From Naegleria gruberi (Eukaryota): a DNA stretch of 64,000 nucleotides. Positions 7,642 through 53,133 of this stretch are shown piece by piece. The notes beneath the pieces are model-generated. The model worked only from the letters and a program-made list of their open reading frames with translations, had not been told where the DNA came from and ran no database searches. The translations under genes were made by a program, and so were the position numbers. The stretch is taken from NCBI GenBank assembly GCA_000004985.1, contig GG738865.1; one strand, given 5' to 3'. Each line of letters opens with the position of its first letter. The stretch's first letter is position 1.

Positions 7642-7767
7642 TTTTTTAAGGGAGAATACTAAGGAACATGTGGAGTGAGTGGTAAATCCAAATACTCTAG
7701 CTTTCTTAAAGGGAGAGATTCTGAAAGTGTATTGTGGGAGGATAATGAAGAGAGAGTGGATGAGAAT

Positions 7768-15791: not shown

Positions 15792-16086
15792 GAATGAATT
15801 ATTGTACAATTTCACCTTTTTAACAATGATACCTGGTACTTGTGTGACATTGGTTAATAGACACATTCCGAAGGCTGCTTTTAAGATACCTTCAATCCTC
15901 ATCATCATTCCAATGTTGTTTGTTGAAGAAAATGTTGTAGGTGTTATCCACTCACTTTGAAAAAACTCCATTAATTCACCATATGGACTGCAATAAATTT
16001 GGTTGGTGGATAGCTGTTAAATTAGATTCAATCAAAATTTTTAAAATAAAATTAAAAAATTTAAAAAATTGTTTGTTGAAAAAAAA

Positions 16087-18432
16087 ATGAAAAAGACACT
16101 CTCCCTCTACTCTAAATCAGGATTGAAGACTGCTTCAACTACCTCCACTGCTACTTCCAGTGTGATGGTGATGAAGAGAAACTTTTCTAAAAATACTTTC
16201 AAGAGACTGGAATTTATTGATACTGAGGATAAAGTAGTGTTGGAACACATTTCCAAGGAACAACTTGCTCACCTTGCCAAACTCAGAAATATTGGTATTT
16301 CTGCTCACATTGACAGTGGTAAAACAACATTGACCGAACGTATTCTTTTCTATACCGGTCGTATCAAGGAAATTCACGAAGTTAAAGGTACTGATGGTGT
16401 TGGTGCCACTATGGATTCTATGGATTTGGAAAGAGAAAAGGGTATCACTATTCAATCTGCTGCTACTCACTGTGAATGGGACAAGCATCACATTAATATT
16501 ATTGATACTCCAGGTCACGTTGACTTTACAATTGAAGTTGAAAGAGCTTTGAGAGTTTTGGATGGTGCTATTTTGATTTTATGTTCAGTTTCTGGTGTTC
16601 AATCACAATCTTTAACTGTCGATCGTCAAATGAAGAGATATGGTGTTCCACGTTTGTGTTTCATCAACAAATTGGATCGTTTGGGAGCTAATCCAGATCG
16701 TGTCATTGCACAAGTCAGAGACAAGTTAAAGTTGAACGCTGCTGCTGTTCAAATTCCAATGGGTTTGGAAGATAACTTGCAAGGTGTTGTTGACGTTATT
16801 GAAATGAAGGCCCTCTATTTTGAAGGTGACAATGGTGAAAAGATTACAAAGAAGGAAATTCCAGAAAGATATTTGGAAGAAGCTCAAACAAAGAGAGCTG
16901 AATTATTTGAAAGATTGGCTGAAGTTGATGATGAATTTGCTGAAGTTTATTTGGAAGATGGTGAAATTACTGAATCACTCATTCACACCACAATTCGTAG
17001 AGTTACTATTGCTAACAAATTCGCTCCTGTTTTCATGGGTAGTGCCAAGAAGAATACTGGTATCCAAGCTTTGTTGAATGGTGTCCTTCGTTATTTACCA
17101 AATCCTGCTCAAGTTAAAAACACAGCTATTGATTGTTCTGAAGAAAAGGCAGGTTTACCAGAAGCTGAAAGAAAGGTTGAAATTCATGCCGACAATACTA
17201 AACCATTCATTGGTTTGGCTTTCAAATTGGAAGAAGGTAAATACGGTCAATTGACATATATGAGAGTTTATCAAGGTACATTGAAGAAGGGTACTTCAAT
17301 TACTAATGCCAGAACTGGTGACAAGTTGAAGGTACCAAGATTGGTCAGAATGCACGCTAACGAAATGGAAGATATTACAGAAATTGGACCAGGTGAAATT
17401 TGTGCCGTTTTTGGTGTTGATTGTGCTTCTGGTGATACATTTATTTCATCTGCAAAGAATAAGTTCACTTTGGAAACTATGTTTATTCCTGAACCAGTCG
17501 TTTCCAAGTCTGTTCAACTTAAGGATCGTGCTAAGGAAAACATTTTTGCCAAGTGTTTGAACAAATTCCAACGTGAAGATCCAACATTTAAGGTTACATT
17601 CGATCCAGAAGGTAATCAAACCATTATCAGTGGTATGGGTGAATTGCACTTGGATATCTATGTTGAAAGAATGAAACGTGAATTTGATTGTGAAGTTATT
17701 GTTGGTAAGCCATATGTTGCTTATCGTGAAACTATTCAAGGACGTGGTGAATACAATTACACTCACAAGAAACAATCTGGTGGTGCTGGTCAATATGCTA
17801 AGGTTATTGGTCACATTGAATCAATGACTGAAGAAGAAATGGCTGAACATCCAGACAAATTCATGTTTGAAAATCGTATTATTGGTAACGCTATTACACC
17901 ATCATATATTACTGGTTGTGAAAGAGGTTTCCGTGAATCTGTTGTTAAGGGACCATTGATTGGTTGTCCTGTTTGGGGTGTTAAGGCAATTTTGAGCGAT
18001 GGTGCTACTCACCCTGTCGATTCGAGTGAAATGGCCTTTAGATTTGCTTGTGAACAAGGTTTCAGACAAGCTTTTGAAAAATCAAGACCTGCAATTCTTG
18101 AACCAATTATGAAGGTTGAAATTGTTGTTCCAGAAGAATTCCAAGGTGAAGTTTTGGGCAGTATCAATCAAAGACGTGGTCAAGTTACAAATTCTGAAAG
18201 AAGTGCCATCGATGCCAGTTGGACAATTTGGGCTGAAGTTCCTTTGGCTGAAATGTTCGGTTATACAACAACTTTGAGAAGTTTAACACAAGGTAAAGGT
18301 GAATGTTCAATGGAATATTTCACTCACCGTGTTGTTACTCCAGATATTCAACAAAAGATTATTGACGAAAAGAGTAAGGAAAGTGGAAACGGAGGTGAAG
18401 CTAAGGCTGAATCTGGTAAGAAGAAGAAATAA
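16087..18432 (+). CDS. GFM1: elongation factor G, mitochondrial (EF-G1)
   Basis: ATG at 16087; the track start at 16069 is TTG. An N-terminal presequence-like stretch is followed by the G domain ([32 protein letters not shown]) and EF-G domains II-V. The Lys-rich C-terminus ends at TAA 18430-18432. Confidence 0.95.
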
Positions 18433-18813
18433 ACTAATTGATAAAATACTTAATGTAAATAGAATTGGTTAGTTTTCTTTAATTTAATATTTGTATTAAC
18501 ATTTCCTTCAGGAAAAAGTTAACGAATACTTTGAAAAGGGCCGATTTATTCCAAGAATTTTATTTGCCATTTTTAGAAATTGGAAAACCTTAAGTTGACC
18601 GTAATTTGAAAACTTTTGAAACATTGGAAATTCCATGTTTTATTATTGTAATATGCTCCTTAAATTCCTTGTTAAGGTCTTACTGTAATCCTCAAACATT
18701 CAAACAGTACGATTCACAATTCCCAACAAACATTCTCTTCATTGTCCAATGTTGAACGGCCTTGCGGTTTGCACACACTTTTCTTGAAGAAAAAAATTAA
18801 CAACAAACTCAAC

Positions 18814-21800
18814 ATGAGGAGCAACCTTAATTGGCTTAATTGCTTACTGTTAACAGCCTTTGTGTTAGCGCTCTTTTCCTTTCACACGAAGGGTACTGTG
18901 CTAGAGTATTGCGATACAATGACAAATATTCCACCTCTTTGCTCGAATCAACAAAATCTAGGACATGCTGTTGATATAGAGTTGCCAGGTGGATATAGTG
19001 AAGTAGGAATGAATGTTACAACACAATTGGTTGGCTTTATCAATGACCAAAATGAAGATTTGTATCACTTGGTGAATGCTCCTACTTTGGTTGATAAATA
19101 CATTTCAAAACTTAAGAGGGTAAGCAAGAATGGTGCAGAGATTTGGACATTAGACATTCAAAGTGATTGCAGCACAAGTGCATCAGTAGTTAGTCAAACT
19201 CTTTCCTTTGCTTCGGATGGTACTATTGTGTTATCTGGTTGGATTATTACAAAGGAAAGAGCATGTTTTAGGGGTACAAAACTATCCTCAAAAACCTCTC
19301 AAAACAATAGAAAAGTTCCATTCATTGCCTTCGTATCATCAACTGGCTATGTGATTTCTGTAATTTCCTTAGAAAATGACTTCCCTGATGCATCAATTTC
19401 ACATGTTGATTTAGACCATTCCGACTCGAACAAACTCTATCTTATCATCAGAATGGATTCAAGATTATTGATTGCATGTTACAATGACGGTAGATTAATG
19501 TGGAACAATGTAATATCCTCTTGTGCAGATCCAAGTAAATGTCAGGCTGCAGGTTTGAGTTATTCACCATTTGGGAAAATTTTGGTCACACTTTATGAAA
19601 GTGATGGAACTAATTTCCAATTCGCTGCTCAAGGTTTCAATTTTGTTTCACACAAATCTGGAATCTACATAGCGACATTTAGCTCAGATGATGGTTTGTT
19701 CTCTTCTATTGATATGGTGTTCCACAGTACCTCAGTTAACATGGGAGCACCAAAGACAGTTTTGGATCGTTTAGGAAAATTACACCTACTGATTGCATGT
19801 GAGGCTAATTGCTACATAAGCGGTTCCATTGCAAATCCAGGTGTCTTCTTGTTGAGATATTACAATGGAGCTGTTGAAAAATTAAACAGATTCATTTCCC
19901 TTATATTATCCAAAATTAAGCTTCAAAGCCTTGCATTAGACAGAGATCTATCTATCTATGCAATTATTAATGGATTGACATCATTTTCAATAATTGATGA
20001 CACCGATGGCAGAGTATCAAATTTTCTTGATATTGGAGTTCTTTGTAAATTCAGATACTCAGATGGAAAGATTTTATGGTTACGAAAAATAGCTGACGAT
20101 CCAACTCTGGATTACTACCACGTAAGTCCTTCCAGCATAATGGTTAATAAGAAGGCCACTGTTGATGAAATTATTCCAACCATGTTCACATATCTCAGAG
20201 ATGGCACAAGAAGAACAGCCTGGATTGAATCATACACTGCTCGTTACGATACAACTGAATCATCATCTGCTAGAATAGGAGGATCTGGAGGATCAACAAC
20301 ACACACAACAAGTGACAAAGTTACTGCAATTCTTTTTGGAACCACTTCAGATTATGTTAGGGATATTGGATTTGAATTCAAATCTGTACCTGCTTTCCAA
20401 GGCGGGTTAGGAATTAGATATGCCATTGACAGTGATGAATATTTCACCTCGATTGACTATTGTGTTGGTGGTAATTCATATACCACAGTAGAATATATCA
20501 AATTCAACACAAACAAGAAGTCTTTTTCAAATGGTAAATGTCGTAGTTCCCTTCAAACTGAAAGCGTTCCAAAAGGTAAAGAACTTGTTGGTTTCACAGT
20601 CAACATAGGTATATATCTGGATTCAATCAAGTTTTACTATCGTAGCCCATATATTTGCATGACTGGCACAGAAGGGGACAAGTGTGACACCAATGTATGC
20701 TATGGTATTTCTTCCAAGTCCGCACTGAAATGTAGTGGTAAGGGTAATTGCGTTGGGCCTAATACTTGCTCATGTTATTTTGGATATTTTGGGTCTAATT
20801 GTGAACAGAAAACTACATGTTTTGGTATTGACTTTGATTCAAAAACAGTTTGTTCTGGAAATGGAAATTGTTATGGGCCGAATACTTGTCGGTGTAATGG
20901 TAGATATACTGGAAACCAATGTCAATACGCAACATGTAATGGAATAATTCAATCGGATAGCAAGGTGTGTTCAGGTCATGGATCATGTATTAAGGAAGAT
21001 ACATGTTCCTGCCAAGAGGGATATTCTGGTCCGTCATGTAGCACATATTCGTGTTCAGGAATTTTAAATTCTGATTCGAAAGCTTGTTCAACACATGGAG
21101 TTTGTTCAAGTTTAAATAATTGCACATGCTTAGTTGGTTATTTTGGTAGTACTTGTAACGAATTCGAGTGTGGGGGTATCAATGCCAAGTCTAATCTTAC
21201 CTGCACAGGAAGAGGAATTTGTTCTTCTTCAAATAATTGTAAATGTTTAGCCCCTAATTCTTATGGAGACAATTGTGAATCATGTAAGGAAGGGTATTAT
21301 GGAAGCAAATGTGAAAAATGGAATTGTAATGGTATTGAGAACACGTCGCCTGATGTATGTGGTGGTAGAGGACAATGTGTCGCTCCAAATCAATGTAAAT
21401 GTACTTCAACTGCCACTGGTTCATTTTGTGAACAATGTGTTACAGGTTATTTTGGACTTAAGTGCGGTAATTGGACATGTAATGGTATTGAAAACACAGC
21501 CACAAATGTTTGTAACCACAGAGGAAGTTGTATTGCATATGATAATTGTCAATGTTCTTCAAGATCTTATGGTTCCAGTTGTGAATCATGTGTTGGATTG
21601 TTTACTGGTGCTCTCTGTTCTGAATGTTCTGGACACCTCGAAGGAGATGAAGAATGTTTAAATTATGCTGTCACCGATCCAGAATACTATGCTTTTACTG
21701 ATGATAATAGGTTAGAATTTCTTCAATTTATAGTAATGTCAACAGGTATTGTGAATTCTACCGATTATGCTTGTAGCAAGTTGTTTACTAATCTAGAGAA

Positions 21801-24800
21801 TGAAATTGGTATAGGTTTGGAATGTACTGTTAGGAATGGCACAGTTTCTCCTTCTAATACTGTCAATAGAGCTTATTTAATTACTGTTAAAACTTTTCAA
21901 GGTACAATGAGTCCAAGTAAACCAATACATTTCAACATCTTTTGGGCAAATCCACAAAAAAAACCATCCTATACCACCCTTAACATTAGTGTAAAAGAGT
22001 TTTATACAAAGAATTCGATTGGTTTAGATTTGTATGCTGAGCAATATAGGGTGTAAACAGATGTTATGACACACAATTACGTTTACATTACTCGCAACCA
22101 GAACACCGATACACTTTCACATCCATTAAATGGAACATTACAAATTCAAATAATCTCCAAACTGTTCCTAAAATTGTGCAAGCTGTAGAAACTGCCAAAA
22201 ACAGTCTTGACTTGACTATTCCATTCGTACCAGAAATGCTCACTAATGAAACTCTAATTGTAACAGTGACTTTTGTATCTGCTTTTGGTCAACAAGCCGT
22301 AAAATCATTCCCACTTAAATTAAGTAAACCTTATCCTAAACCAAGTTCTACCATTCCTACTAGAACAGTTACCTTCCTTAGTTCAGAAGATGAGACTATT
22401 CCTCTTCGAGAATTCTATGAAAATCCTGAATGTTTAGATCAAGGAATCGTTCCATCCTTTTCCCTGTATCGCGGTTACTATGATGATTATTTTACTATGG
22501 ATCGTACTAGTTCACATTCGGTTATTCTTACCTCAGATTTAATTATTGTTAAATCTTTAACGTTTACAAATGAGGAAATACTGCCCATATGGTTTGGCAA
22601 TTCAGCAAGAATCCGGTTAGATGTTCGTTACCTTCCACCTATTCCAAAAATAGTCGAATCGATTGTTTATTATAACTTTATACAGCCAAGCATTACCATT
22701 GCTTGTAGGAGTCCTTATGGAGATTCATATTTTTACAGCAGCATCAGATATTCGTTGTTAGAGGATTCTTCCAAAATAGCGAATGGATACGCTTCCTCTG
22801 CAACTGTTCCAGTTAGAGTACTGAGTGCTGCTAATCCAGACTCTGCAGTATCGAGTGCTCTTTTCGAATTGACTTGTAGTGGGCCAAATAGGCTTGGAGA
22901 TACTTCCATTTCAAAATATGTGACATTTATTAAAGAACAACCTGCAAGTAGTACACCTCACCAGGATATTGTAAAATTCTTGCAGTTTCATTGAAGACTC
23001 CAAATGGAAGAAGTACAATACCTTATTCAGAAAATGATCAAACCTATAATCTTGAAGTGGTATCTTCAAGTAATGATTGCAAGTTAAGAGTTATCTTATC
23101 CAATCCAATCAGCTATAATTCTGTTGAATTATTATCAACTACACTTTCCAATACCATCAGCACTGTACCAGTAGTATTCAAACAGAGCACTCTCTCAAAG
23201 TTTACAATGGCAAAGAGTTCTACAACAATGTCTTTATATGCCGCTAATGATCTCTCTGTACAAGGTCAAAGTATTGAACTTCAAGGCAAATTTTTTACAA
23301 TAATTGACATGTGTTCAATTTCTCCATCCACCATTGAAATTGGAATAACCAAAGCAACACTTTCATGTACATCTGACCTTGTTACCACATCGACAAAGAT
23401 TGAGCTCTATCATGATGGACTCTTGGTTGGTAAATCTGCCAGTTTCCCAATTGACTTTGTAACATCAAGGTCAGGACAATCTTTTAAGGTTGTAATTTAT
23501 GACACACTTACTGGTGGTAAAGCTAGTGAAGATATACTCTTGTCAAAAGCCATTACGTTCAGTACTAAATCATTACTTACAAGTAGTTTCGTATCAAAAA
23601 TTGCAAGTCAAATGGCAATCATTTCACAATCGAATAGTGCCAGTTTTAAAGACATTTCCAGTAATAATAATTATATTGTTTCAATGATTAATAATATTGG
23701 AATAGCTACAGAGATTGTGCAAAAGGAAATCGCTTCATTGACTCCAAAAGCTTTGGATATGTCAATTACGGCAATTTCGAAAGACATGAAAGAGTCAAGT
23801 CCATCTCTAGGCTCGTTCTCAACCATGGTCAACCAGATAAAGGACTTGTCCAATCCTGAATATTTAACTGATTCAAATGTTGAGAAAACTACTCAAATTG
23901 TAAACGAATTTGTTTCATATACTCAAAGATTGACAAACTGGGATGATGGGATTTCTGCTTCGCTTTCTAATATTGTAACAAACATTGCTCCAAAGATATC
24001 TGAAACCACTACAATGTCCATGATTTCTAAAATTGCGTTTTCTACTATTTCCAAAAGTTCACAATTCACATTCACAACCACAAACTTTTTCCCAGATAAG
24101 AAACCTTCCAATTTGATTATTGTGAATGCAGTAAAGTCCAGTTACGTCTCCATGAACTCACTTTCGATTACATCCGAATCCAAAGTCCCACTAGTCTCAT
24201 TCCAATTGTCCAAACACAAGACAACAGCTCAAGCCAATGAAGAAATCATAGTTTCACACTCAGTTTTCAAATATCCATCATCAAAGCGATCCATTACAAC
24301 ACCTAAAAGAGATTTCATTTCCCAATTGAGTATTTCTTCAAAAAACATTTTGGAAGGAACTGCTTCATTCAATATTCCTCTCCCATCGTATGCTTCACCA
24401 ATTAGTCCTCTAATCAAACAAACTTTCAGATGTATTACTGTATACGACATGAAGGATTTCCAAGTTGAAACGTATTGTAAATACGCCAGCAATTCCAAAC
24501 AATATTTATCTGAATTTCAATCTGATTCAACAACTGTTGTAACATGTTCATGCGATTTGAATTATTTATCAAAGCAATCTCAATTTTCAATGATTGGTGT
24601 AACAGCTGAGTATTTGGAAGATGATTCTGCCTATAGAGCAGACCAAGATGCAAAGGTAGCAGCTGGTGTATCTGTTGCACTCATATTCGTTATTCTTTTT
24701 ATTGTTGGAATAGTTCTATTGGGTGTTGGAATTTCAGTCTTTTTGTATTTTAGAAAGAAGAAACAAATGCCACCTGCCCAATTCCCTGCCAATTCACAAC

Positions 24801-25009
24801 CATCGATTCAGTACACTACACAACCCTCAAGTAGCACCATCAATACCTCTACTCCTGATTTATTGGTTGCCTATTCTGTAAATGCTGATTTTGAATTGGG
24901 AACTGTAAATGCTGGTCAGCATTGGTCAGTTCCAAATCAAATCCATTTAGGTGCTATGGATGGTATCGAAAATGTGACAGCACAAAATATTCAACCAACT
25001 TCAATTTAG
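18814..25009 (+). CDS. large type-I membrane glycoprotein with tandem EGF-like Cys-rich repeats (tenascin-like C-x-G-x-G-x-C...C-x-C repeats), Ser/Thr-rich stalk, one C-terminal TM helix and a short cytoplasmic tail; multi-exon, ~2000 aa
   Basis: The track shows three abutting ORFs in frames 1, 0 and 2 (18742..22056, 22176..22994, 22991..25009). Only the first has a signal peptide (ATG 18814, MRSNLNWLNCLLLTAFVLALFSF). Only the last has a TM (VAAGVSVALIFVILFIVGIVLLGVGISVFLYF) plus tail. The last two begin at GTG/TTG rather than ATG. Junction 2 is explained by a 38-nt intron 22948..22985 (GTAGTA...TTGCAG). Junction 1 has two candidate introns: 22032..22204 (173 nt, GTATGC...AACAG) or 22022..22101 (80 nt, GTTTAG...ACCAG). 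It may instead be a real frameshift. Confidence 0.55.
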
Positions 25010-28772: not shown

Positions 28773-30878
28773 TTACTCTAAGACTGCCAAAACAGCTTCA
28801 CCTTGAACGAGGTCACCAATAGCATATGGTAAACTCTTGATAACACCATCCTTAGTGGCCAAAATCTTGTGTTCCATCTTCATGGCTTCCATTGCAAGGA
28901 TAGTATCACCCTTTGAAACCTTATCTCCTTCCTTAACCATGACAGCTGTAATTTTACCTGGCATTGGACTCTTCAATGATCCCATAGCTGGACCACCCTT
29001 TTGTTCGAAAGCAGCCAAAACTGGAACAATTTCATATCTTTGACCATCTCTTGTGAAGAGGTAAATTGTCTTTTGGTCGTGACTAAAAGCAAGGGTTGAG
29101 TGGAATTTTCTGCCATCAACAGAAGCAACAATTTCCTTAGTAGTAGCATCATAAGAACCACTAACAACATGGCTATTCTTACCAATCTTCATGACAAATT
29201 TGCTAGTTGTTTGTGGATCCCACACATGTTCAACATTGACAGAAACAATTTGATCTTTGTGGTGTGGATGGTGGAATTCAAAGTTTTCATCGTGATTGTG
29301 ATTGAATCTGAGACCTTTGAGTTGATCGAATGGATCGCTTGAACGCTTAGTTTGTCTATCATTCTTGACAATCAATGAGAGAGTGGACAACAAGAAGACA
29401 GAATCATCAATCTTCTTTTCAGGGAAGAGTTCACTATAATACTTTTGAATAAAGTGAGTTTCCAATTCAGTGACATTCTTAAATCTTTCATTGGTGGCCA
29501 ATCTGATAAGGAATTCAATATTTGTATTCAAACCAGAAATGTGATATCTGTGGAGACAAGAAACCAATTTACGGAGAGCCAATTCTCTGTTTTCGCCCCA
29601 AACAACAAGTTTAGCAATCATTGGATCATAGTAAATGGAAACTTCATCACCTTGTCTGACACCAGTTTCAACTCTGACTTCTCCTGGAATTTCTTCTGGA
29701 GGACTCAAATAACGCAATGTACCAGTACCTGGCAAGAAGTTATTTTCTGGATTTTCAGCATAGATACGAGCTTCGAAAGCATGACCAGTTCTCTTCAATT
29801 CGTTTTGGAGAAGTGGTAATCTATTTCCAGAAGCAACTTGAAGTTGCCATTCAACCAAATCTTGACCAGTAATCATTTCAGTAACTGGATGTTCAACTTG
29901 AAGTCTAGTATTCATTTCCATAAAGTAATAACTATTATCAGCATTGTCCATAATAAATTCGACAGTACCAGCACCAACATATCCAACAGCTCTGGCAGCA
30001 TCTACAGCACTTTCACCCATAGCTCTTCTGACTTCATCTGCCAAACCTGGTGCAGGAGCTTCTTCAATAATCTTTTGATGTCTTCTTTGAACTGAACAAT
30101 CTCTTTCAAACAAGTAAACACAATTTCCGTGAGTATCAGCAAAAACTTGAATTTCAATGTGACGTGGTGTTTGAATATATTTTTCAATTAAAACTCTGTC
30201 ATCACCAAATGAAGCTTTAGCTTCACGTTTAGCAGAAGAGAGAGCTTCTTTGAATTCCTTTTCACTGTGGGCAAGCTTCATACCTTTACCACCACCTCCC
30301 AAGACAGCTTTAATCAAAATTGGGAAACCAATTTTCTTTGCTTCTTCCAATAATTTGTCTTCACCTTGTTCATCTCCGTGATAACCTGGCACAACAGGTA
30401 CTTTGGCATGTTCCATAATCTTTTTACTTTCACTCTTTGATCCCATTGAAATAATAGCTCCTTCTGGTGGTCCAATAAAAACAACACCATTCTTGGCACA
30501 GAGACTGGCAAATTTAGCATTTTCTGACAAGAAACCATAACCAGGGTGAATAGCTTGAGCTCCACATTGTTTGGCAATTTCAAGAATTTTATCACCACAC
30601 AAGTATGATTTGCTTGATTCTGGTGGACCTAACAAGTAGGCTTCATCAGCCATAGCTACGTGCATAGAATTGGCATCGGCTTCACTATAAACAGCAACAG
30701 TTTTAATACCAAGCTTTCTTGCTGTTTTCATAACTCTACAGGCAATTTCACCTCTGTTGGCAATCAAGATTTTATCAAAGAGTGGTTTCTTGTTTTGTTC
30801 ATTGCAAAGTCTGCTGCTGATGATGATTGTGATGTGAGTTGTTGATTCATAATTGTATGAAAATATTTCTTTCCGCAT
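28773..30878 (-). CDS. MCCC1: 3-methylcrotonyl-CoA carboxylase alpha subunit (biotin carboxylase + biotin-carboxyl-carrier domain), mitochondrial
   Basis: 701 aa. ATP-grasp biotin carboxylase core (FDKILIANRGEIACR, GGGGKGM) and a C-terminal biotinyl domain with the EAMKME motif. Sequence upstream at 30764..31036 (frame-shifted) encodes a presequence-like peptide MLLRNSLKQSKSIRKNVGAALST... and may be a 5' exon. Confidence 0.9.
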   Translation of the reverse strand: MRKEIFSYNYESTTHITIIISSRLCNEQNKKPLFDKILIANRGEIACRVMKTARKLGIKTVAVYSEADANSMHVAMADEAYLLGPPESSKSYLCGDKILEIAKQCGAQAIHPGYGFLSENAKFASLCAKNGVVFIGPPEGAIISMGSKSESKKIMEHAKVPVVPGYHGDEQGEDKLLEEAKKIGFPILIKAVLGGGGKGMKLAHSEKEFKEALSSAKREAKASFGDDRVLIEKYIQTPRHIEIQVFADTHGNCVYLFERDCSVQRRHQKIIEEAPAPGLADEVRRAMGESAVDAARAVGYVGAGTVEFIMDNADNSYYFMEMNTRLQVEHPVTEMITGQDLVEWQLQVASGNRLPLLQNELKRTGHAFEARIYAENPENNFLPGTGTLRYLSPPEEIPGEVRVETGVRQGDEVSIYYDPMIAKLVVWGENRELALRKLVSCLHRYHISGLNTNIEFLIRLATNERFKNVTELETHFIQKYYSELFPEKKIDDSVFLLSTLSLIVKNDRQTKRSSDPFDQLKGLRFNHNHDENFEFHHPHHKDQIVSVNVEHVWDPQTTSKFVMKIGKNSHVVSGSYDATTKEIVASVDGRKFHSTLAFSHDQKTIYLFTRDGQRYEIVPVLAAFEQKGGPAMGSLKSPMPGKITAVMVKEGDKVSKGDTILAMEAMKMEHKILATKDGVIKSLPYAIGDLVQGEAVLAVLE

Positions 30879-40762: not shown

Positions 40763-42556
40763 TTACATTCTAAAGACACCGAATTGAGTTGGACTTTCAA
40801 TCTTTCCATTTTCACAAGCACTCAAACTCAAACCAAGAATTCTTCTTGTGTCACGTGGATCAATGACACCATCATCCCACAATCTGGCAGATGAGAAGTA
40901 TGGGTGACCTTCATGTTCATACTTGGCTCTAATACCATTCTTGAATTCTTCCATTTCTTGTTCTGGAACTTCCTTACCTAATCTCTTCATACCTTCAACC
41001 TTAACTTGGGAAAGGACGCCAGCAGCTTGTTCACCACCCATGACAGAGATTCTAGAATTTGGCCACATGTACAAGAATCTTGGATTGTAAGCTCTACCAC
41101 ACATACCATAGTTACCAGCACCGAAACTACCACCGAGGAGGACAGTAATCTTTGGAACCTTAGCACAAGCAACAGCCATGACCATCTTGGCACCATCCTT
41201 AGCAATACCATTGGTTTCGTATTGTTTACCAACCATGAAACCAGTAATATTTTGAAGGAACAAGAGTGGAATACCTCTTTGAGAACACAATTCAACAAAG
41301 TGAGCTCCCTTTTGAGCAGATGATGAGAACAAGATACCATTGTTAGCAATAATACCAACTGGCTTACCATAAATCTTGGCAAAACCTGTCACCAATGTAG
41401 TTCCGTATAATTGTTTGAATTCATCAAATCTACTTCCATCGACAATACGAGCAATAATATCTCTGACATCGAATGGTTTTCTACCATCACGTGGAATGAT
41501 ACCTAAAATTTCATCTGGATTATATTTTGGTTCTTCAAAAGATGTTGGAACTTCATTTCTATTACTATTATTCTTTCCCAAAAAGTCAGTCTTTTTCATA
41601 TTGAGATTTGAAATAATTCTTCTTGTCAAATAAATAGCTTCAGTTTCATCATTGGCATAGTAATCAGTGACACCACTTTGTCTACAGTGAACATCAGCAC
41701 CACCCAATTCTTCATCAGTAACTTCTTCACCAGTAGCAGCCTTAACTAATGGTGGACCACCCAAATAAATAGTACCATTACCCTTTACAATAATACTTTC
41801 ATCAGCCATTGCAGGAACATAGGCACCACCTGCAGTACATTTACCCATAACTACAGCAATTTGTGGAATACCTTGAGCACTCATATTGGCTTGATTGTAG
41901 AAAATTCTACCAAAGTGAAGTTTGTCAGGGAAAACATCAGCTTGATGTTCCAAGTTGGCACCACCACTGTCAGCAATGTAAATACATGGCAAGTTATTTT
42001 GTTCAGCAATTTCTTGGGCTCTCAAATGTTTCTTTACAGTGATTGGATAATATGTACCTCCTTTAACAGTTGCATCGTTAGCAACAATTACACACAATTG
42101 ATCGTGAATTTTACCAATACCTGTAATAATACCACCAGCAGGTACTTCATCCTTTCCGTACAATTCATAACCAGCCAATTGACTGAATTCGAGGAAAGGA
42201 GATCCATCATCCAACATTCTATTAATACGATCTCTAACCAAGAGCTTGTTTCTTGAAGTGTGCATCTTTCTATACTTTTCTCCACCTCCCAACTTGATCT
42301 TTTCAACCAAATTCTTCAAATCATTAACTCCTTGAATATTGTGAGTATAATTTGCCTTGTATTCGGCATCATGATGAATATTATTTTCAAGAATATTATG
42401 AGTATTTTCAGCACTTGTAATACTATGATAAAATCTATTATTATTTGATGAAGATCCAGCAGCTAATTGTTTGGCCAAAGAACCACCAACCAAACCAGAA
42501 CGTTGTTGTTGGTTGAGAAGAATGCTAGAAATTTTCTTGGTTGAATTTTTAAGCAT
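40763..42556 (-). CDS. MCCC2: 3-methylcrotonyl-CoA carboxylase beta subunit (carboxyltransferase), mitochondrial
   Basis: 597 aa with an N-terminal presequence-like region. Carboxyltransferase N and C domains ([62 protein letters not shown]). Confidence 0.9.
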
Positions 42557-45409: not shown

Positions 45410-47455
45410 ATGCCTCCACCTCCTCCTTCAACATCTTCATCATCAACACCAAGAGGAAAGGCAATGCGATCTGCTTTTCTACCACCCGAAACCCCATTAT
45501 CAACCAAAATTAGAAAACCAATCAGGGCCACTCCTTCTTCTTCAACTTCCTCATCGACCAATGGCACTAAGCTACAAGAACAAGAACAGCTACAAGACCA
45601 ATGTATTAAAGTGTACATTAGAATTCGTCCGAACGATGATCATGACCAATTACAAATTGAATTTCTCAACAATTCTTCAATTCAAGTCACGTGTAAAAAT
45701 CAAGAAAAGGCAGATACACCAAAAGTATTCCTATTTGATCAGGTTTTGGATGAAAATGTTTCTCAGCAACAAGTTTTTGATTTGATTGGTGTTCCAGTTG
45801 TTGAAGAACTTCTTCAGGGGTTCAATGCTTCCATTTTAGGTTATGGACATACAGGATCTGGTAAAACATTTACAATGGGAACTAATCTTCATGAGATTGC
45901 AGATTCCTTTGAGAGTGGCAATTTGCCTGCTGCTTGTGGTTTATTGCCACGAATTGTTGAAAGGTTGCTAAACAGGAAGAAAGTGGACGAACAATTAAGC
46001 TGCTCCTTATTTGAAATTTATAATGGAGGAGTTTATGATTTATTTGGAGAGGCCAGCAAAAAGTGTAAGGTCAAGTATTCAAACGGTGTGGATGTTGTGA
46101 CCAATGCTAAAAAGAAGCTTATTCATTCACTGTCTGATCTTTCTTCCATTTCGTCTGGTTTAAAAAGGAGACATCAAAGTGCAACTGGACAAAATCTATC
46201 CTCATCAAGATCACACTGCATCTTTAGATTGTTTATCACAACTGCAGACAATACTGAAAGATGCCTAAACATGGTTGACTTGGCTGGATCTGAACGTCAA
46301 AAAACTGCCAACATTCACGCTGATAAAATGTTACTAGATGAAGCAAATTACATTAATACTTCATTGACAGTTTTGAAAAGATGCATTGAAGCAGTCTATA
46401 ATAATCAATCCAATACTGATAAGAAGACACTAGTTCCATACAGGGAAGATAATCTTGCCTTATTGTTGCATTCAACTTTGGAAGGAAATTCAAAAACTTT
46501 CTTTATTGGAAATATTGGAACTGCAAGTGAATCGATATCAACTTTGAATTATGCACAAACGGCAAGAAAGATTAAAAAGATGACTAGCAAGTTGAGTTCA
46601 ATGTTGAAGAAGAAATCAGGAGGATTGTTTGAAGAGGAAATTGAAAAGTTAAAGAAAGAGTTGGAAGAAACTAAGGGTAAATTGGATGAGGAAAGAGATA
46701 GCAAGACCAAACATATTGAAGAACTCTCACAGAAAATTGCATTATTAGAAACTAAACAACAGGAAGCTAATGAAATTCTCAAACAATCGAATACCATTAT
46801 AGAAGAGATGCAAATCAGAGACGATTCTCTGAAAGAAATTTGCTCAGAAAAAGAAGAAATTATTTCAAATCTCTTTGAAGAATTGTCAAAAGCCAGAAAA
46901 GAAAGCGAGCTCTTGGAGAAGGACAATTCAACATTGAAGAGTGAAAATTCAATTCTTTTGGAAGCAATTGAAAATCAATGTGAAATCATTAGACAACGAG
47001 ATAAGGAACATGATTCAGCTTTCCAAAATTTGAAAGAGCAACTAGACGAATATCAAAAACAGTCATCCTCAAAGACTCTTACAATTCAAACTCTGCGAGA
47101 TGAATTGAAAAAAAAGGACAAAATCATACAGAGAAAATCTTCAACTACTGCAGAACAACTTTATCAGACCATTGAAAATTTACTTAAAACAATTGAAGAT
47201 CAAAAGAAGACAATTCACATGTTTTTGAATGGAACGATGGAAGTTGTGGATATTGATAAGGAAGAAGCTCATGATGGTAATTCATGTGATAGTGATGATG
47301 ATGATGAGAAGGTGATGTCTGATTCTCCAGTTGTGAAATCAAACAAACGAAAGGTAATTTCTCCACTCCAAAATATTGTCTATGAATCAACAGATGAAAA
47401 TAATGAACCAGAATGTAAATATTCAAAATCTGATTTATTAGAATATTTAAAATAA
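45410..47455 (+). CDS. kinesin-like protein (N-terminal motor + coiled-coil stalk)
   Basis: 681 aa. P-loop GYGHTGSGKTFTM, switch motifs SSRSH and LVDLAGSER, neck, then a long coiled-coil (LKKELEETKGKLDEE...). The N-terminus is Ser/Pro-rich. Confidence 0.85.
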   Translation: MPPPPPSTSSSSTPRGKAMRSAFLPPETPLSTKIRKPIRATPSSSTSSSTNGTKLQEQEQLQDQCIKVYIRIRPNDDHDQLQIEFLNNSSIQVTCKNQEKADTPKVFLFDQVLDENVSQQQVFDLIGVPVVEELLQGFNASILGYGHTGSGKTFTMGTNLHEIADSFESGNLPAACGLLPRIVERLLNRKKVDEQLSCSLFEIYNGGVYDLFGEASKKCKVKYSNGVDVVTNAKKKLIHSLSDLSSISSGLKRRHQSATGQNLSSSRSHCIFRLFITTADNTERCLNMVDLAGSERQKTANIHADKMLLDEANYINTSLTVLKRCIEAVYNNQSNTDKKTLVPYREDNLALLLHSTLEGNSKTFFIGNIGTASESISTLNYAQTARKIKKMTSKLSSMLKKKSGGLFEEEIEKLKKELEETKGKLDEERDSKTKHIEELSQKIALLETKQQEANEILKQSNTIIEEMQIRDDSLKEICSEKEEIISNLFEELSKARKESELLEKDNSTLKSENSILLEAIENQCEIIRQRDKEHDSAFQNLKEQLDEYQKQSSSKTLTIQTLRDELKKKDKIIQRKSSTTAEQLYQTIENLLKTIEDQKKTIHMFLNGTMEVVDIDKEEAHDGNSCDSDDDDEKVMSDSPVVKSNKRKVISPLQNIVYESTDENNEPECKYSKSDLLEYLK

Positions 47456-47458
47456 AAA

Positions 47459-48529
47459 ATGGGAAATAGTCAACCAAGTAGAAATTTCACAAAAAATCAA
47501 TTAACAACACCAGTTTCCATTCCGATATTGTTTCTTATCGGAGATAAATCAAGTGGAAAGACGCAAACTATTCTTTCATATAACCACAGTTTCGAATTAA
47601 ACAGACGAACCCGACATTTAATTATTGAACTTTCGCGATGCATTCTTGGTTATGAAGCTCATCAAATTTCCAAGATTGACGAAAAACATTACAAAAGCAT
47701 TGCAAAAAAGTTAAAAAAAACTTGGAATTCCAAAAAGGAAAATTCTTTAAAATTCAACGCTGAAAATTTTAAAAGAAATTTAAATTATTTTGAAATTTCA
47801 ATTGAAAAACTTTTGGAAATTCTTGAAAAAATTGTAAAGGACGAATTTAGTACTGAATTGACCAATTCAGAAATTCAAATTATTGAACAAGCTCAACTAT
47901 TAATTCATCCATTTGCTTATTTCCTGGAAAATTGGTCAATTGGAACACAAACTAATCAATTAGTTGAATTATGTGCAATTCCAAGATCGAAATTATCACT
48001 TGATTCAGAAACATTTTCATGGATGAAAGAAAGAGAAAATTCTGTCGTTTTGGTTTTCATTTCATTGATTGGATGGTTGGATGAAACAGAGTATAATTTT
48101 CACAATTTTGATGAGATTGGAAAGGTGCTTGGACACGTTTCGAATAAGAAATTCGAATTTGTTTTTACAAAACCAGATCTGTTGTGGAAAATTCTGGCAA
48201 AAGGAGTGAAATATAAACATCAGGTGAAAGATACAAGAGCAGAGTTATTGGATATGGAAACTAAATACGGATTCGATCGAATAGTTAGCTCAATAATTTC
48301 AAAATACGAAACTGAACTACTGGCAGAATGCAATGATGCACAGAAACCTTTCAACTATCACATAGCAAGAACCAATTCATTGGACGAAATCTCAAAAGTG
48401 ATTGAAAGTGCCACTTCTGAATTTTCTCAATTTATTTCACCATTTATTATTCGAAAGACTTTATTCCAACCAGCACATTCCAATCAATTATTCTATTCAG
48501 ATCTATTAATATTGTGCATCTACCCTTAA
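47459..48529 (+). CDS. divergent G-protein alpha-subunit-like protein (N-myristoylation motif, intact P-loop, degenerate switch II and NKxD)
   Basis: 356 aa, a typical G-alpha length. MGNSQ (MGxxxS) N-terminus. P-loop LFLIGDKSSGKTQTI, compared with G-alpha LLLLGAGESGKSTI. A helical-domain-sized insert follows. VVLVFISLIGWLDETEY...SNKKFEFVFTKPDLLWKIL aligns with G-alpha AIIFCVALSDYD...[30 protein letters not shown] replaces TCATDT. DVGGQ is absent. The start is 3 bp after the kinesin stop. Confidence 0.6.
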   Translation: MGNSQPSRNFTKNQLTTPVSIPILFLIGDKSSGKTQTILSYNHSFELNRRTRHLIIELSRCILGYEAHQISKIDEKHYKSIAKKLKKTWNSKKENSLKFNAENFKRNLNYFEISIEKLLEILEKIVKDEFSTELTNSEIQIIEQAQLLIHPFAYFLENWSIGTQTNQLVELCAIPRSKLSLDSETFSWMKERENSVVLVFISLIGWLDETEYNFHNFDEIGKVLGHVSNKKFEFVFTKPDLLWKILAKGVKYKHQVKDTRAELLDMETKYGFDRIVSSIISKYETELLAECNDAQKPFNYHIARTNSLDEISKVIESATSEFSQFISPFIIRKTLFQPAHSNQLFYSDLLILCIYP

Positions 48530-48883
48530 TAATCCTTTAAATACAGTGAAAAATTGATTATTTTTAACAGAAACTTTCCGTAATGAAATATAACAGTTGA
48601 CATTTCCATAACTCGTGTCAAGTTTCTATCCAATTCTATCTTCATATTACATGATGAAGAAGGTAGAGTAAGCAACTGCCAAACATCAAAATTTGGCCAG
48701 CTCTATACACCAAACAAACATCTTGAAAGTTTTGCAAGTTTAAATTTCAGATCTTGGAAAAAAACGTTGCAACTTTCCATAAACAGTTTCTATTGCCAGA
48801 ACTGTAAAGAAAAAACCAAACTAATCTTCATAGCGCTCAAATTAAACTTTTAGCTTATTAGAAGACACAAAAAAATAAACACA

Positions 48884-51162
48884 ATGAAGTGGTTCTCTAC
48901 TACACATGTGTTTTGTTTGTTGTTGATTTTGTTGGTAGTGGTAGAAAGTGAGTTGACAATTCTGTCAAGCGAAGATTTGGCATTTGACAGTTCCAGGAGT
49001 AATCAGAGTGTTATTGAAAGGAAATTATTATCAATTGACGAAAATATAAAGAGAATCAATATTTCTAACACAAATTTCCTTCAAAATTTAGCAAATGACA
49101 ATTGGCAGGTAATCGCATCAACTCAATCACTAGTAATTGTTAGTTTACAGAATTTAACAACCATTGATGATGTTCTTCTACTCGCATCACGTAAACTAAT
49201 TAAAATTGGTGTACACACTATTATTGGAATAGACATTAGGTTTGTGGAGACGAAACTTCAACTAAACTCGACGAAACACTTCTACAAGACTGAGAGAATG
49301 GACAGAACATCTTCTGATTGTTGGATGGGAAATGTTTTCGAATATTTCGATGTTGTAATTTCAAGTGATTTGTTTCTTCCAATTCTCATAAGACAAAATC
49401 GAGATTGTTATGTCACAACCCCAGTGTTTAGAACATTAGATTATCAAGATTTGAGTTTAGTTTCATTTTCTCCCTTTGAAATAGTAATAGCAAACTCAAA
49501 AGCATCATTTAATGATCTTGTCACCTATCAATATGAAATAATGAACGACATGTTCAAAAATTTACAAATTTCACAACAAGTTTGTGAATCAACGACAAGT
49601 TCATACAAGGAACATGATTATTCAGTGTTGAGAATTGAACAATTTTTCACAAATATTTCAGCGGATGATTTTTTATTTATTGTGGAATATCATGCGTTGG
49701 ATAATTGGACACTAAATCAAACATTTACTAATTTGGCATTTGAAATGGTGTTAAATAGAACTGGATATAGTGTTGATAAGCTCAATTCTATGAAAAGATC
49801 ATTCTTTCCCACAAAATGTTACTCCTGTCTAACGTCATCTTGTATGTGGGAAGACAGAGCTAGTCCAGTAGCTTCAAATGCAGATGGTGTCAGTATTGGA
49901 GGTGGTATCTCTCTATTCATTGCATTATTTTTCTATTTTCCTTCTTTAATTCTATTCAGAAACAGAGAATCGGTCAAGATTCGTCTCATTGTTCCATACG
50001 TTTCGGTTCTGAGTCCAGTTTTCATCATGTTGATTCAGATTTTTCAACTTATCAAGCCGTGTTATTTGCTCTATCAGATTGCTGTTAATTTTCTATCCTG
50101 TTGGTCGATTATCATTTATTTTTTGATTTGTATTCGATTCGTCTTGTTGAGAAATATTTATACGCTAGTTCTGTATCTTAATGAGAGACATATCAAGATT
50201 TTAAAATGGTTAGTGAGTAAGAGAGTTGCAAGTATTGGATCCTTTCTGATGGGTGTGTTGATTGGATGTTTAGTTTCCCTCGTTCCCCTTGTTGGATTTT
50301 ATGATGTAAGTTGTTATTCGAATCCCAAACTAAACATCTTCTTTGAAAATAGGAATTCTTTGGAAATCGTGCTGCCATACAATGTGCTTTCATCACCTTT
50401 GGAATCACTGTAGCCATTGCAACATTATCATTACTAGCACTTGTCATTCATTTCCTCTTCAAGATTCCAATAATTTGGAGAAGAGGTCTATTATATATTC
50501 TATTCTTTGATGATCCATTTCAAATCAAGTTTGATATTTTATTCTTCTCACTCAATACTATAGTCATTACAGTTTATTTATTCACAGAGGCGAATCAGAA
50601 TTATGTTTACAGTATTTTTGCACCACTCCTATCTCACAATATTGGAATGTTGTATAGAGGAGGTTTAGTTTTGATTATTGAATGGTTTAAAACGATTTAT
50701 TTTAGAAAACAACTGAATATGACTGAGAAGGAGAAAGTGGACGAATTGGTTCTTCATTTGGAAAATCCAGAATTCTTCAATTTAATGAAGGAATTTGTTG
50801 CAAAGGAAACTTCACTTGAGAACTTGAAATTTTACGAAGAATTGAAACAAATAGAAAGAATGAGTCAATCTGACAAGAATCCCAAAATCAGTCACGAAGA
50901 AATGATTCGAATAAGGGACAAGTACTTTAAAGAAAATGTTCTATACGAATTGAATATTGGAGGCCAAACTAAGCAATCGTTTCACAATCTCGTAGCAACA
51001 GCTGCAAATCCAAATGAAGAAGTTCGCCTTAAAGATTTGAAATTCATTCTCGATGAAGAATTGATGGGAAATTTGAGTGATGCCTATTTGAGATTGAAAC
51101 AACAACCAGGTTTTAAGAGATGGAAAGTAGCTCACAATATTTATATTGAGGAAAAGGAATAG
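48884..51162 (+). CDS. 7-transmembrane receptor-like protein with C-terminal RGS domain (7TM-RGS architecture); 2 exons, ~743 aa
   Basis: Exons are 48884..50305 and 50353..51162, joined by intron 50306..50352 (47 nt, GTAAGT...CTAAAC...AAAATAG). The exon-2 frame is open upstream of the track ORF at 50647. Signal peptide, a ~330-aa extracellular region, 7 hydrophobic helices, then an RGS domain (EFFNLMKEFVAKETSLENLKFYEELKQ...IRDKYFKENVLYELNIGGQ...LKDLKFILDEELMGNLSDAYLRL). Confidence 0.7.
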
Positions 51163-51448: not shown

Positions 51449-53133
51449 TTATTCGTCAGCAATTGCTTTCATATTTTTAATTTCTTCCTCGTGTTTCTCT
51501 CTCAATTCCTTCTTATTGAGCGATTTCTTAAGAATTGCCAAGAATAAGAAAGCTGGAATTAACCAAATAAATAAAACTAAAAGTAAGGTTTGAGGAAGTT
51601 TGAGTTTGGACAAGATACTATAAACACCACTGGTCACAGAAATTCCCAAATAGGTAAATGTTGAAAAGAAACCCATAAATTCACACTTCTTTTCCAATGG
51701 AATTAATTTGCTCATTAATCCACGAGCTACACTAGCATTCCATGCATATAAAAATCCAACAACCAGAAATTGAGCCAAAACAATGTACTTTTCCACTTTC
51801 ATTGAAATTGTAATAAATACTGAATTGAAGAAGAATTAGAAAATTCTCATTCAATTTGATTTGAAAACTTACTCGAAAGTGTTAAAACTCCAAAAAGTGA
51901 ATTTTGACCTGCCAAAACATAAATGTCATGAACCTTGAATAATTTCTCAAAAATTACACCTCCAATCACACCACCAACCATGGCAATCTTGAAATACAAG
52001 TTCAATAACACCTCCTGTTCAAGTCCAAAATTATAAATATCAATAAAAAGAGGTCCCAAATAAATTGTCACAACAGTACCAGCTGTGGAGAAGAATAAAT
52101 AGGAAAAGAGGAAAATCCAACAGTGATAGTATTGCTCATTCCTTCTCCAATGGATGAAGGTCTCAGCAAGTGATTTTAAAGATTTGGCAACCACTGCATA
52201 GACCTTTCCCAATCCTCTCAAATATTTTGGTAATTTGGAGAAACATTCAGGAATTTGCAAAGTTTGTGCTGTTTTGGCAGAAATTGGCTCTGGATTCAGA
52301 GTGACCTTATCTACACCATTTGGACTCAGAATGACAAACAGAGAGACCAGAATGGTGAGACTTGTGAAAACGAGAACCCACCAATTTTCTCTCGAAATAT
52401 CCCAAACTCCTCCCGAAAAAACACTCGAAGGTACAAAGGCCAATACCAATAATCCAACAAGATTGACACCAAATCCAATGAAATTACCCAACAAACTCAA
52501 AATCATCATATTCTTCTTATCAAAACAAGGTAAGAGAGCATTATTATTCATTACTGAAAATCTCAAAAAGAACATGGCCAATATATACACAATTTCACAA
52601 ATAGCCAAATGAGAAGTATAATCCTGTGGTGATTCATGTGGTAATTTATCAGTGAAAAACAATCCAATTGTTGCCAAAATACCCAAATACATTGTCACCA
52701 TCATTGAACTCCTAATTAATTTCAAATTATCAACCAAAGATCCCAAAATTGGCAATGTCAATGCACTTGCCAATGTTGTCACTGTATTAATAATTGAAAA
52801 TGCAGTAGAATACTCAGCTCCACTACCAGAAGCAACATTATGTAAAATCTTTGGATACAGAGCTGAATAGACAATTGTGTTCAACACATTAAAAACAATA
52901 CTAAACGATAACCATCCAATTGAACTTTTCACAACATGAAACAGTATCTGTGTTCTACTACTATGACCCATTCTATTCATTCCATTCTTAGCATCATCAT
53001 GTTCTGCATCATCATCATTCATCATTAATTGTTTTGATTCTTCATTATCAACAAATGATTGATCATGATGATCTATTGATTGAAAACGAGCATGATGATC
53101 ATATTCATCACCTCCATCTCCTCTTTGTATCAT
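51449..53133 (-). CDS. major-facilitator-superfamily-type transporter (Atg22/UNC93-like topology); 2 exons
   Basis: Exon 1 is 53133..51873, ending at a GTAAGT donor. Exon 2 is 51819..51449, or 51795..51449. Both acceptors (TTCAG or AAAG) keep the frame, giving an intron of 53 or 77 nt. About 12 predicted TM helices. His/Asp-rich cytosolic N-terminus. Confidence 0.6.

Follow-up and report, generated by a model that had tools for sequence, protein, structure and literature searches.

Does the close tandem arrangement of a highly diverged Gα-like gene and a receptor gene carrying an RGS domain reflect a signalling module, or are the two genes chance neighbours? The two lie on the plus strand, 354 bp apart, in the 64,000-nucleotide stretch of DNA that was analysed as a whole (the window; Table 1). 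An earlier note read them as a co-regulated receptor/Gα module, in which a possibly GTPase-dead Gα would partner a receptor-GAP. Neither gene type is new to Naegleria. N. fowleri has 13 Gαs, 28 7TM-RGS proteins and 79 other RGS proteins, and its 7TM-RGS domains are GAPs for canonical Gαs (PMC9283941); N. gruberi has ~44 Gαs, some with deviant catalytic motifs, according to PMC8584482 (citing Anantharaman 2011). The pairing of the two genes is not conserved at the Naegleria loci compared. Our preferred reading, which we consider reasonably probable, is that the first gene encodes a degenerate, probably nucleotide-binding and non-hydrolysing descendant of Gα, and that its adjacency to an ordinary 7TM-RGS gene is incidental.

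Table 1. Features of the Gα-like/7TM-RGS locus (positions in the window).
Feature	Position	Strand	Basis or remark
Kinesin gene (context)	45410..47455	+	Pfam Kinesin 1.6e-67
Gα-like gene, 356 aa, intronless	47459..48529	+	ORF and relatives; degenerate Gα family, probable pseudo-GTPase
G1 / P-loop GDKSSGKT, residues 28-35, intact Walker A	47540..47563	+	Sequence and orthologue
Switch I and switch II equivalents, residues 156-180; catalytic Arg, DxxG and Gln replaced	47924..47998	+	Gi1 alignment
β5 and G4 block FEFVFTKPDLL, residues 232-242 (TKPD 48167-48178)	48152..48184	+	11/11 identical in N. gruberi
β6 / G5-equivalent block KPFNYHIARTN, residues 296-306	48344..48376	+	8/11 identical in N. gruberi
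Spacer, 354 bp, between the Gα-like and 7TM-RGS genes	48530..48883	.	
7TM-RGS exon 1: signal peptide, ~310-aa Cys-containing ectodomain, TM1-TM4	48884..50305	+	ORF, hydropathy
Intron, 47 nt, GTAAGT...AG	50306..50352	+	Restores frame between two ORFs
7TM-RGS exon 2: TM5-TM7 and cytoplasmic RGS domain	50353..51162	+	ORF, hydropathy, Pfam
RGS domain, residues ~610-731 (Pfam core 610-693)	50758..51123	+	PF00615

The Gα-like gene consists of 356 codons and a stop codon. As stop codons are expected at ~7.6% per codon at the local base composition (our own estimate), an open frame of this length is not due to chance, and it is intact although the DNA is AT-rich. The P-loop is followed by FTKPD at residues 236–240, where TKPD stands for NKKD with the Lys and Asp retained; it aligns with SKPD in P0007, an N. 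gruberi protein discussed below, and with NKKD in Gi1. The spacing of these elements is close to that of Gi1, with 169 residues from P-loop to β4 compared to 179, and 40 residues from β4 to G4 compared to 50. The P-loop is separated from the first strand region by ~120 residues, which are predicted as helical in low-confidence models and have no significant sequence match.

In contrast to these retained elements, the switch motifs have gone. In an alignment with Gi1, Arg178 is replaced by Glu157, Asp200 by Pro175, Gly203 by Lys178 and Gln204 by Leu179. The DVGGQ of switch II aligns with PRSKL (residues 175–179), and the N. gruberi orthologue has a different sequence here that does not match either. 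The switch I motif RxxTxG, with its Arg finger and Mg-binding Thr, is absent, and no conserved Walker B acid was seen. The 356-aa protein was searched for DxxGQ and TCAT, and neither is present. At the G5 position, TCAT becomes ARTN (YHIARTN, aligned with FDYHVCNTTN of P0007 and YTHFTCATD of Gi1); this β6/G5 block is conserved within the subfamily, yet it is not the canonical motif. The Gα-like length, the P-loop, the substitution of FTKPD for NKKD, the room for a helical insert and the loss of DVGGQ and TCAT, all described in the earlier note, were borne out by the ORF and the motif alignments. The N-myristoyl motif that it described holds in part: Gly2 and an MGN.Q start are shared with the N. 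gruberi orthologue, but Pro6 disrupts the PROSITE N-myristoylation pattern. Only ~21 residues, prolines among them, precede β1, and no helix is predicted there in the low-confidence models.

The downstream gene encodes a protein of 743 residues with a signal peptide, an ectodomain, seven transmembrane segments and a C-terminal RGS domain. Its intron has the same position in a metagenome contig (L005). The protein scores 31.7–34.7 bits against PF00615 (cut-off 23.9), and the family profile matches the RGS domain of EhRGS-RhoGEF (4GOU) at 4.7e-5. The RGS contact residues SLEN, ELN and SDAYLR appear to remain, judged by eye and by an alignment to RGS4, which we treat as a lead. The transmembrane segments were called by hydropathy alone, from family-averaged peaks at ~340–358, 368–386, 399–417, 453–471, 488–506, 536–554 and 573–591. 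Pfam found no domain in the ectodomain (no EGF, lectin or GPS). The receptor resembles AtRGS1 and the N. fowleri 7TM-RGS proteins in having a cytoplasmic RGS domain behind seven transmembrane segments, and its description as an AtRGS1-type neighbour ~350 bp downstream is correct in this order of domains and in distance. It departs from AtRGS1, which has no ectodomain, in the large extracellular N-terminus that it shares with several N. fowleri 7TM-RGS proteins. Its nearest homologues are from N. fowleri and N. lovaniensis (35% identity over ~90% of the length); the homologue search returned none from N. gruberi, and a metagenome scan with the 7TM-RGS profile was negative. We take the gene to be an ordinary representative of the Naegleria-type 7TM-RGS receptor-GAPs, with a predicted GAP role. 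An EGF/Jacalin gene at 18742–25009 was also considered as a 7TM-RGS gene and ruled out, being single-pass.

Are the two genes parts of one functional and co-regulated module, in which the degenerate Gα serves the receptor-GAP as a decoy or as a permanently 'on' partner? Their tandem arrangement on one strand with a short spacer is consistent with this, and a given gene would have a 7TM-RGS gene as its immediate neighbour with a chance of only ~0.5%, taking ~28 such genes among roughly 12,000. The RGS and Gα families are, moreover, biochemical partners in Naegleria (PMC9283941). However, over 13–44 Gα genes the chance expectation is ~0.06–0.2 such adjacencies per genome, and the observation of the pair is post hoc. 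There is no Gα-like neighbour at the three loci in N. fowleri and N. lovaniensis that carry the nearest 7TM-RGS homologues, and the 551 bp upstream of the 7TM-RGS gene in L005 contain a tRNA, with no Gα-like gene seen. The synteny check therefore went against the module, as the pair is not conserved in the genomes examined (N. fowleri, N. lovaniensis and the L005 contig). A 274-aa N. fowleri gene upstream of one 7TM-RGS homologue (P0001) proved unrelated to the 356-aa protein. The phyletic patterns of the two genes look complementary and not shared. RGS domains contact switches I, II and III in the transition state, and the elements so contacted are those replaced and unconserved in the 356-aa protein. 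Given the loci without a Gα-like neighbour and the lost RGS contact surface, we regard the module as unlikely; the adjacency is most likely incidental, in an ordinary neighbourhood. Neither gene has a paralogue elsewhere in the window, whose long ORFs include no second RGS or Gα gene, and a search of the whole window with Rfam at gathering score found no family. The remaining genes in the window are functionally unrelated (PPR, carboxyltransferase, kinesin and MFS). The best matches of the window's proteins are Naegleria proteins with 31–43% identity, which suggests a compact genome of a heterolobosean akin to Naegleria.

Is the 356-aa protein derived from Gα at all? Searched exhaustively, a library of 1.8 billion proteins yielded two relatives only, both predicted proteins of N. 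gruberi. One is the orthologue XP_002677676 (NAEGRDRAFT_48704, here P0006/P0008; E 6e-16), annotated merely as 'predicted protein'. The other is a divergent paralogue, XP_002677043 (NAEGRDRAFT_49275, here P0007; E 4e-4), which is a clear member of the Pfam Gα family (145 bits, 3.1e-42) and matches solved Gαs at ~1e-13. The subfamily profile scored 51.6 bits against P0007 (E 7e-9), where 4000 shuffles reached a maximum of 15 bits. BLASTP aligned the 356-aa protein with P0007 colinearly over switch II, β4, G4, α4 and β6, and a C-terminal tail, (F/Y)SD(I/L), is common to both. Homology to a bona fide Gα member over the GTPase domain is thus significant through P0007 as an intermediate. Because it is linked to P0007, itself a Pfam Gα, we take the 356-aa protein to be a lineage-restricted, highly degenerate Gα derivative.

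Direct comparisons, on the other hand, uniformly failed to place it in the family. Pfam searches found no Gα with the 356-aa protein even at E ≤ 1, so that it stayed below the PF00503 threshold, nor with its orthologue. A phmmer search of the PDB with the 356-aa protein and a search with the two-sequence profile found no Gα either. Alignment of the subfamily with Gi/Gt by hhalign gave a non-significant probability of 1.3%, though in the correct register, and a home-made Gi/Gt/P0007 profile scored 4 bits, which is at shuffle level. A word-indexed homologue search returned nothing with the 356-aa protein and P0007 alone with a four-sequence profile; a metagenome scan with the Gα-like profile found no relatives. 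The exhaustive search returned no relative from N. fowleri or N. lovaniensis, an absence that clustering at 50% or annotation could explain. The label 'Gα-like' given earlier therefore stands by way of P0007 and not by direct profile placement.

These failures could mean that the 356-aa protein is some other P-loop NTPase, with a convergent or local likeness to one odd N. gruberi protein. The AlphaFold2 models, at a pLDDT of 40.4 (single sequence) or 39.7 (four-sequence alignment), are of low confidence, which leaves room for such a reading; a Foldseek search of the PDB with a model of pLDDT ~40 gave noise (best E 0.06, DOT1L) and was discarded. Furthermore, the significant alignment is confined to the C-terminal half: the N-terminal half, which comprises the P-loop and the putative helical domain, does not match P0007 significantly, and the P-loop stretch scores −2 bits. 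However, the matched region of P0007 (236–394) lies within both its Pfam Gα match (70–394) and its matches to solved Gαs, and the register of the alignment reproduces β4, G4 and β6. The P-loop lies at a distance typical of Gα, with space for an insert of ~120 aa, and there was no Ras, Arf or other GTPase among the matches of the exhaustive search. Together these points argue for Gα ancestry, and we consider an origin outside the family improbable, a little more so than the module.

What has been conserved since the two orthologues diverged? Identity to the N. gruberi orthologue peaks at FEFVFTKPDLL (11/11), at SSGKTQTIL in the P-loop block (9/9) and at KPF.xHIAR.N (8/11), whereas the switch bins are the lowest, at 3/20 each. 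Conservation thus has its maxima at the G1, G4 and G5 positions and its minimum across the switch regions, as would be expected of a protein that binds a nucleotide but no longer works as a GTPase switch. Selection appears to have maintained the motifs for nucleotide binding, whereas the switch machinery dissolved. The suggestion that the protein is possibly GTPase-dead is strengthened by this pattern and by the replacement of all four switch positions aligned with Gi1, and we conclude that the 356-aa protein is probably a pseudo-GTPase. It might instead be an active GTPase with a non-canonical or partner-supplied catalytic residue, in keeping with the perfect conservation of G1 and G4. Some GTPases without the catalytic Gln depend on a GAP. 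But here the loss extends beyond the Gln to DxxG itself, and the switch region shows no conservation between the two orthologues. Retained activity is about as doubtful as an origin outside the Gα family.

How might such a protein work? We propose that it is restricted to this lineage, descends from the expanded Naegleria-type Gα family and has diverged extremely. It has kept G1 (the P-loop), G4 for guanine specificity in the form TKPD, and the block at the β6/G5 position. Gone are the Arg of switch I, all of the DxxGQ motif of switch II and the canonical G5 box. The conservation pattern suggests that a nucleotide, probably guanine, is still bound as a structural or constitutive ligand. The protein would neither hydrolyse GTP nor undergo the GTP/GDP switch movement, and would for that reason be an unlikely substrate of RGS GAP domains. 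Since its N-terminus is short and non-helical, canonical Gβγ binding is doubtful. It could act as an adaptor or scaffold, possibly anchored to the membrane, while the expected targets of the neighbouring 7TM-RGS protein would be canonical Gα subunits.

A nucleotide-locked pseudo-Gα could also have become, through co-evolution with its neighbour, a non-hydrolysable partner dedicated to it, and the neighbour's RGS domain would then be a binding module and not a GAP; we give this little credence, less than any of the readings above. Less likely still is a kinesin–Gα-like fusion by stop-codon read-through, and a fusion through a GT(47354)..AG(47469) intron was rejected as out of frame. A decaying pseudogene or mis-called ORF, which could be suspected from a start codon 3 bp after the kinesin stop and in the same frame, and from the orphan status of the protein in most databases, is very improbable in view of the intact frame in AT-rich DNA, an N. 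gruberi orthologue with motif-focused conservation and the same MGN.Q start, and a locus (L004, 2.4 kb, ending inside the gene) where the Gα-like gene is stand-alone.

How does a degenerate Gα descendant of this kind compare with known proteins? Literature searches by accession returned nothing relevant. P0007, the nearest recognisable Gα, is homologous to the 356-aa protein from switch II to α5, and both have [ST]KPD where NKKD is canonical, lack the catalytic Gln and carry an FSD(I/L) tail at the C-terminus. P0007 retains the GG of switch II and scores 145 bits in Pfam, whereas the 356-aa protein and XP_002677676 have no DxxG and are invisible to Pfam. The plant XLGs are likewise Gα-derived with degenerate catalytic motifs, and are thought to be partly independent of nucleotide exchange (PMC8584482). 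This likeness is one of description; the XLGs have a recognisable Gα domain and a long N-terminal extension, while the 356-aa protein is Gα-sized and far more diverged.

If the 356-aa protein did physically partner the adjacent receptor-GAP, the finding would be important; a receptor–pseudoGTPase signalling pair would have no known precedent. The evidence argues against such a partnership. What the locus adds to the known picture of Naegleria, with its many Gαs, some of them deviant, and its 28 7TM-RGS receptors, is modest: the Naegleria-type Gα expansion includes members too diverged for Pfam, and such members would be a natural example of a Gα pseudo-GTPase.

The 356-residue G-alpha-like protein bears the motifs that the earlier note had described: a P-loop GDKSSGKT (residues 28-35) and FTKPD (residues 236-240) are present, and it contains neither DxxGQ nor TCAT. 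Direct tests did not place it among the G-alphas. Pfam gave no G-alpha match at E<=1, phmmer found nothing in the PDB, despite the hundreds of G-alpha chains there, and a profile of the protein and its N. gruberi orthologue retrieved no G-alpha from the PDB. Comparison with Gi1 and Gt by hhalign gave a probability of 1.3%, nonetheless in the right register, and a mixed profile of Gi, Gt and P0007, a divergent N. gruberi paralogue, gave 4 bits, which is shuffle level. No relative emerged from a word-indexed search covering 5.8 billion proteins. Exhaustive searching with HMMER of 1.84 billion representatives (50% identity clustering) yielded two, both from N. gruberi: P0006 (E 6e-16), the cluster of the orthologue XP_002677676 / NAEGRDRAFT_48704, annotated as "predicted protein", and P0007 itself (E 4e-4; XP_002677043 / NAEGRDRAFT_49275).

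P0007 is a clear G-alpha, matching PF00503 at 3.1e-42 (145 bits) and solved G-alphas from Entamoeba, Naegleria and mammals at 1e-13 to 1e-9. The profile of the window protein and its orthologue scored P0007 at 51.6 bits (E 6.9e-9 at full-library size), against a maximum of 15 bits among 4000 shuffled sequences. The alignment of the window protein with P0007 was colinear through the switch II position (ELCAIPRS and ELNLVTAGGK, respectively), beta4 (VVLVFISL and VLLLFVSL), G4 (FVFTKPDLL and VIFSKPDIL), alpha4 and beta6/G5 (FNYHIARTN and FDYHVCNTT), and fell wholly within the G-alpha-matching region of P0007. The window protein and P0007 each end in a C-terminal tail (F/Y)SD(I/L), which canonical G-alphas lack. 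The G-alpha-like label thus stands by way of P0007, although not by direct comparison, and the window protein is probably a descendant of the Naegleria-type G-alpha expansion that has diverged beyond direct recognition. Structure prediction of the AlphaFold type gave a pLDDT of 40.4 from the single sequence and 39.7 with a four-sequence alignment; a fold search on this low-confidence model returned noise and was uninformative.

Motif states were read against Gi1 from an alignment (A2). G1 is intact (GAGESGKS in Gi1), whereas Arg178 of switch I is replaced by Glu157, Asp200, Gly203 and Gln204 of switch II by Pro175, Lys178 and Leu179, NKKD of G4 by TKPD, and TCAT of G5 by ARTN. Identity to the N. 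gruberi orthologue is 31% overall. It is highest in FEFVFTKPDLL (11/11), SSGKTQTIL (9/9) and KPF.xHIAR.N (8/11), and lowest over 40 residues across switch I/II (3/20 per bin). This pattern suggests that the elements holding the phosphates and base are under selection, while those for hydrolysis and switching have been released. The protein the earlier note called possibly GTPase-dead has indeed had its catalytic motifs replaced; judged by this conservation, it is most likely a nucleotide-bound pseudo-GTPase, a G-alpha derivative that would not cycle.

The N-myristoyl motif was upheld in part: Gly2 is conserved as a putative myristoylation site, but Pro at position 6 breaks the PROSITE pattern. 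As the N-terminus is short, contains prolines and has no predicted helix, canonical G-beta-gamma binding is doubtful. The NCBI model of the orthologue (P0008) begins MVGGSSSGKT and is missing about 29 N-terminal residues, among them a conserved MGNKQ start that is visible on a 2.4-kb metagenome contig (L004), where the gene call runs through an intron after ...FAKTLK.

Just AAA separates the kinesin stop from the G-alpha-like ATG (47453-47461), and the two ORFs have a common reading frame. This places the G-alpha-like promoter and 5'UTR within kinesin coding sequence unless the two genes are co-transcribed; stop-codon read-through is a much less likely option. A spliced fusion is unlikely, the candidate GT(47354)..AG(47469) intron being out of frame.

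Features of the window and of the comparison loci
Feature	Sequence	Position	Strand	Remarks
Three consecutive ORFs	window	18742-25009	+	probably one large gene
Biotin carboxylase/biotinyl subunit	window	28773-30878	-	acyl-CoA carboxylase
Carboxyltransferase subunit	window	40763-42556	-	acyl-CoA carboxylase
Kinesin gene	window	45410-47455	+	TAA stop
G-alpha-like ORF	window	47459-48529	+	356 aa, N-terminus MGNSQPS
7TM-RGS gene	window	48884-50413, 50647-51162	+	ORFs joined by intron removal, 743-aa product
7TM-RGS ectodomain	window	48884-49900	+	residues 1-339
7TM-RGS intron	window	50306-50352	+	47 nt, GTAAGT...AG
MFS-type transporter gene	window	51449-53133	-	
MFS-type transporter intron	window	about 51819-51871	-	~50 nt, GTAAGT...CAG
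7TM-RGS homologue	L002, N. lovaniensis	5913-8537		single continuous ORF
EGF_TEN-rich gene	L003, N. lovaniensis	13607-17545		
Orthologue of the G-alpha-like gene	L004, metagenome	1326-2318		
Intron-bearing tRNA	L005, metagenome	84-166	-	83 nt, Rfam tRNA 56.9 bits
7TM-RGS intron	L005, metagenome	about 1920-1963		

The gene beginning 354 bp downstream encodes, as the earlier note held, a 7TM protein with a C-terminal RGS domain, now amended by an intron and a large ectodomain. A signal peptide is followed by a Cys-containing ectodomain of ~310 aa, seven hydrophobic segments by hydropathy and the RGS domain, which scored 31.7-34.7 bits in Pfam (cut-off 23.9); the family profile matched the EhRGS-RhoGEF RGS domain in the PDB (4.7e-5). 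Among the matches listed, the closest homologues were from N. fowleri and N. lovaniensis (35% identity over ~90% of the length) and a metagenome contig (43%). Together with the N. gruberi relatives of the G-alpha-like protein, these homologues suggest as source of the window a heterolobosean akin to, yet different from, N. fowleri, N. lovaniensis and N. gruberi. By tblastn the exon break recurs in the metagenome gene at the same codon position, and the N. lovaniensis homologue L002 has no intron, so the intron was gained or lost within the family. The ectodomain matched no Pfam family and is a putative uncharacterised ligand-binding domain; GVHTIIG, ERMDRxxxDCWMGxVFEYFD, RQNRDC and CYSCxTSxCMWED are strongly conserved with Naegleria homologues.

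The earlier note had read this adjacency as a co-regulated receptor/G-alpha module, and the synteny check went against it. No G-alpha-like gene lies near the closest 7TM-RGS homologues in N. fowleri (L001) or N. lovaniensis (L002, L003): L001 has an unrelated 274-aa gene upstream, L002 has no upstream neighbour within 6 kb, and that of L003 is on the opposite strand. Metagenome contig L005 extends 551 bp upstream of its 7TM-RGS orthologue, and this stretch contains the tRNA, directly upstream of the gene and missed by ARAGORN in default mode. The 7TM-RGS search listed no N. gruberi protein among its matches and the G-alpha-like search none from N. fowleri or N. lovaniensis; within the scope of these searches (listed candidates, 50% identity clustering, annotation gaps), the two genes are not found together. 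An RGS domain contacts its G-alpha partner at the switch regions, in the transition state, and these regions are gone from the window protein. With about 12-16 thousand genes per genome, ~0.06-0.2 G-alpha/7TM-RGS adjacencies are expected by chance, a figure that rises when RGS genes of every type are included. The RGS/G-alpha interaction is lost on a Gly-to-Ser change in switch I (PMC9283941). The other neighbours (carboxyltransferase, PPR, kinesin and MFS transporter) are functionally unrelated. Taken together, these points make a functional module of the two genes very unlikely.

The window is gene-dense and eukaryotic, with a GC content of ~0.31-0.38 (2-kb windows), long ORFs nearly end to end and short introns starting GTAAGT; that of the MFS-type gene is in the style of the 7TM-RGS intron. 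The acyl-CoA carboxylase subunits lie ~10 kb apart. The three consecutive ORFs probably make up one gene, whose product would span the membrane once and combine a Jacalin lectin domain with many EGF repeats, and the EGF_TEN-rich gene adjoins a N. lovaniensis 7TM-RGS homologue.

N. fowleri has 13 G-alphas, 28 7TM-RGS and 79 other RGS proteins (PMC9283941), and N. gruberi about 44 G-alphas (PMC8584482). In Naegleria, 7TM-RGS receptors have been shown to act as GAPs on canonical G-alphas, some of them self-activating (PMC9283941), and such receptors are widespread in other eukaryote lineages (PMC3971589). The orthologue has so far been unannotated, and the significance of the finding is modest. 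Some Naegleria G-alphas have deviating catalytic motifs, according to PMC8584482 (citing Anantharaman et al. 2011), and the window protein would be an extreme case among them, one that Pfam does not detect.
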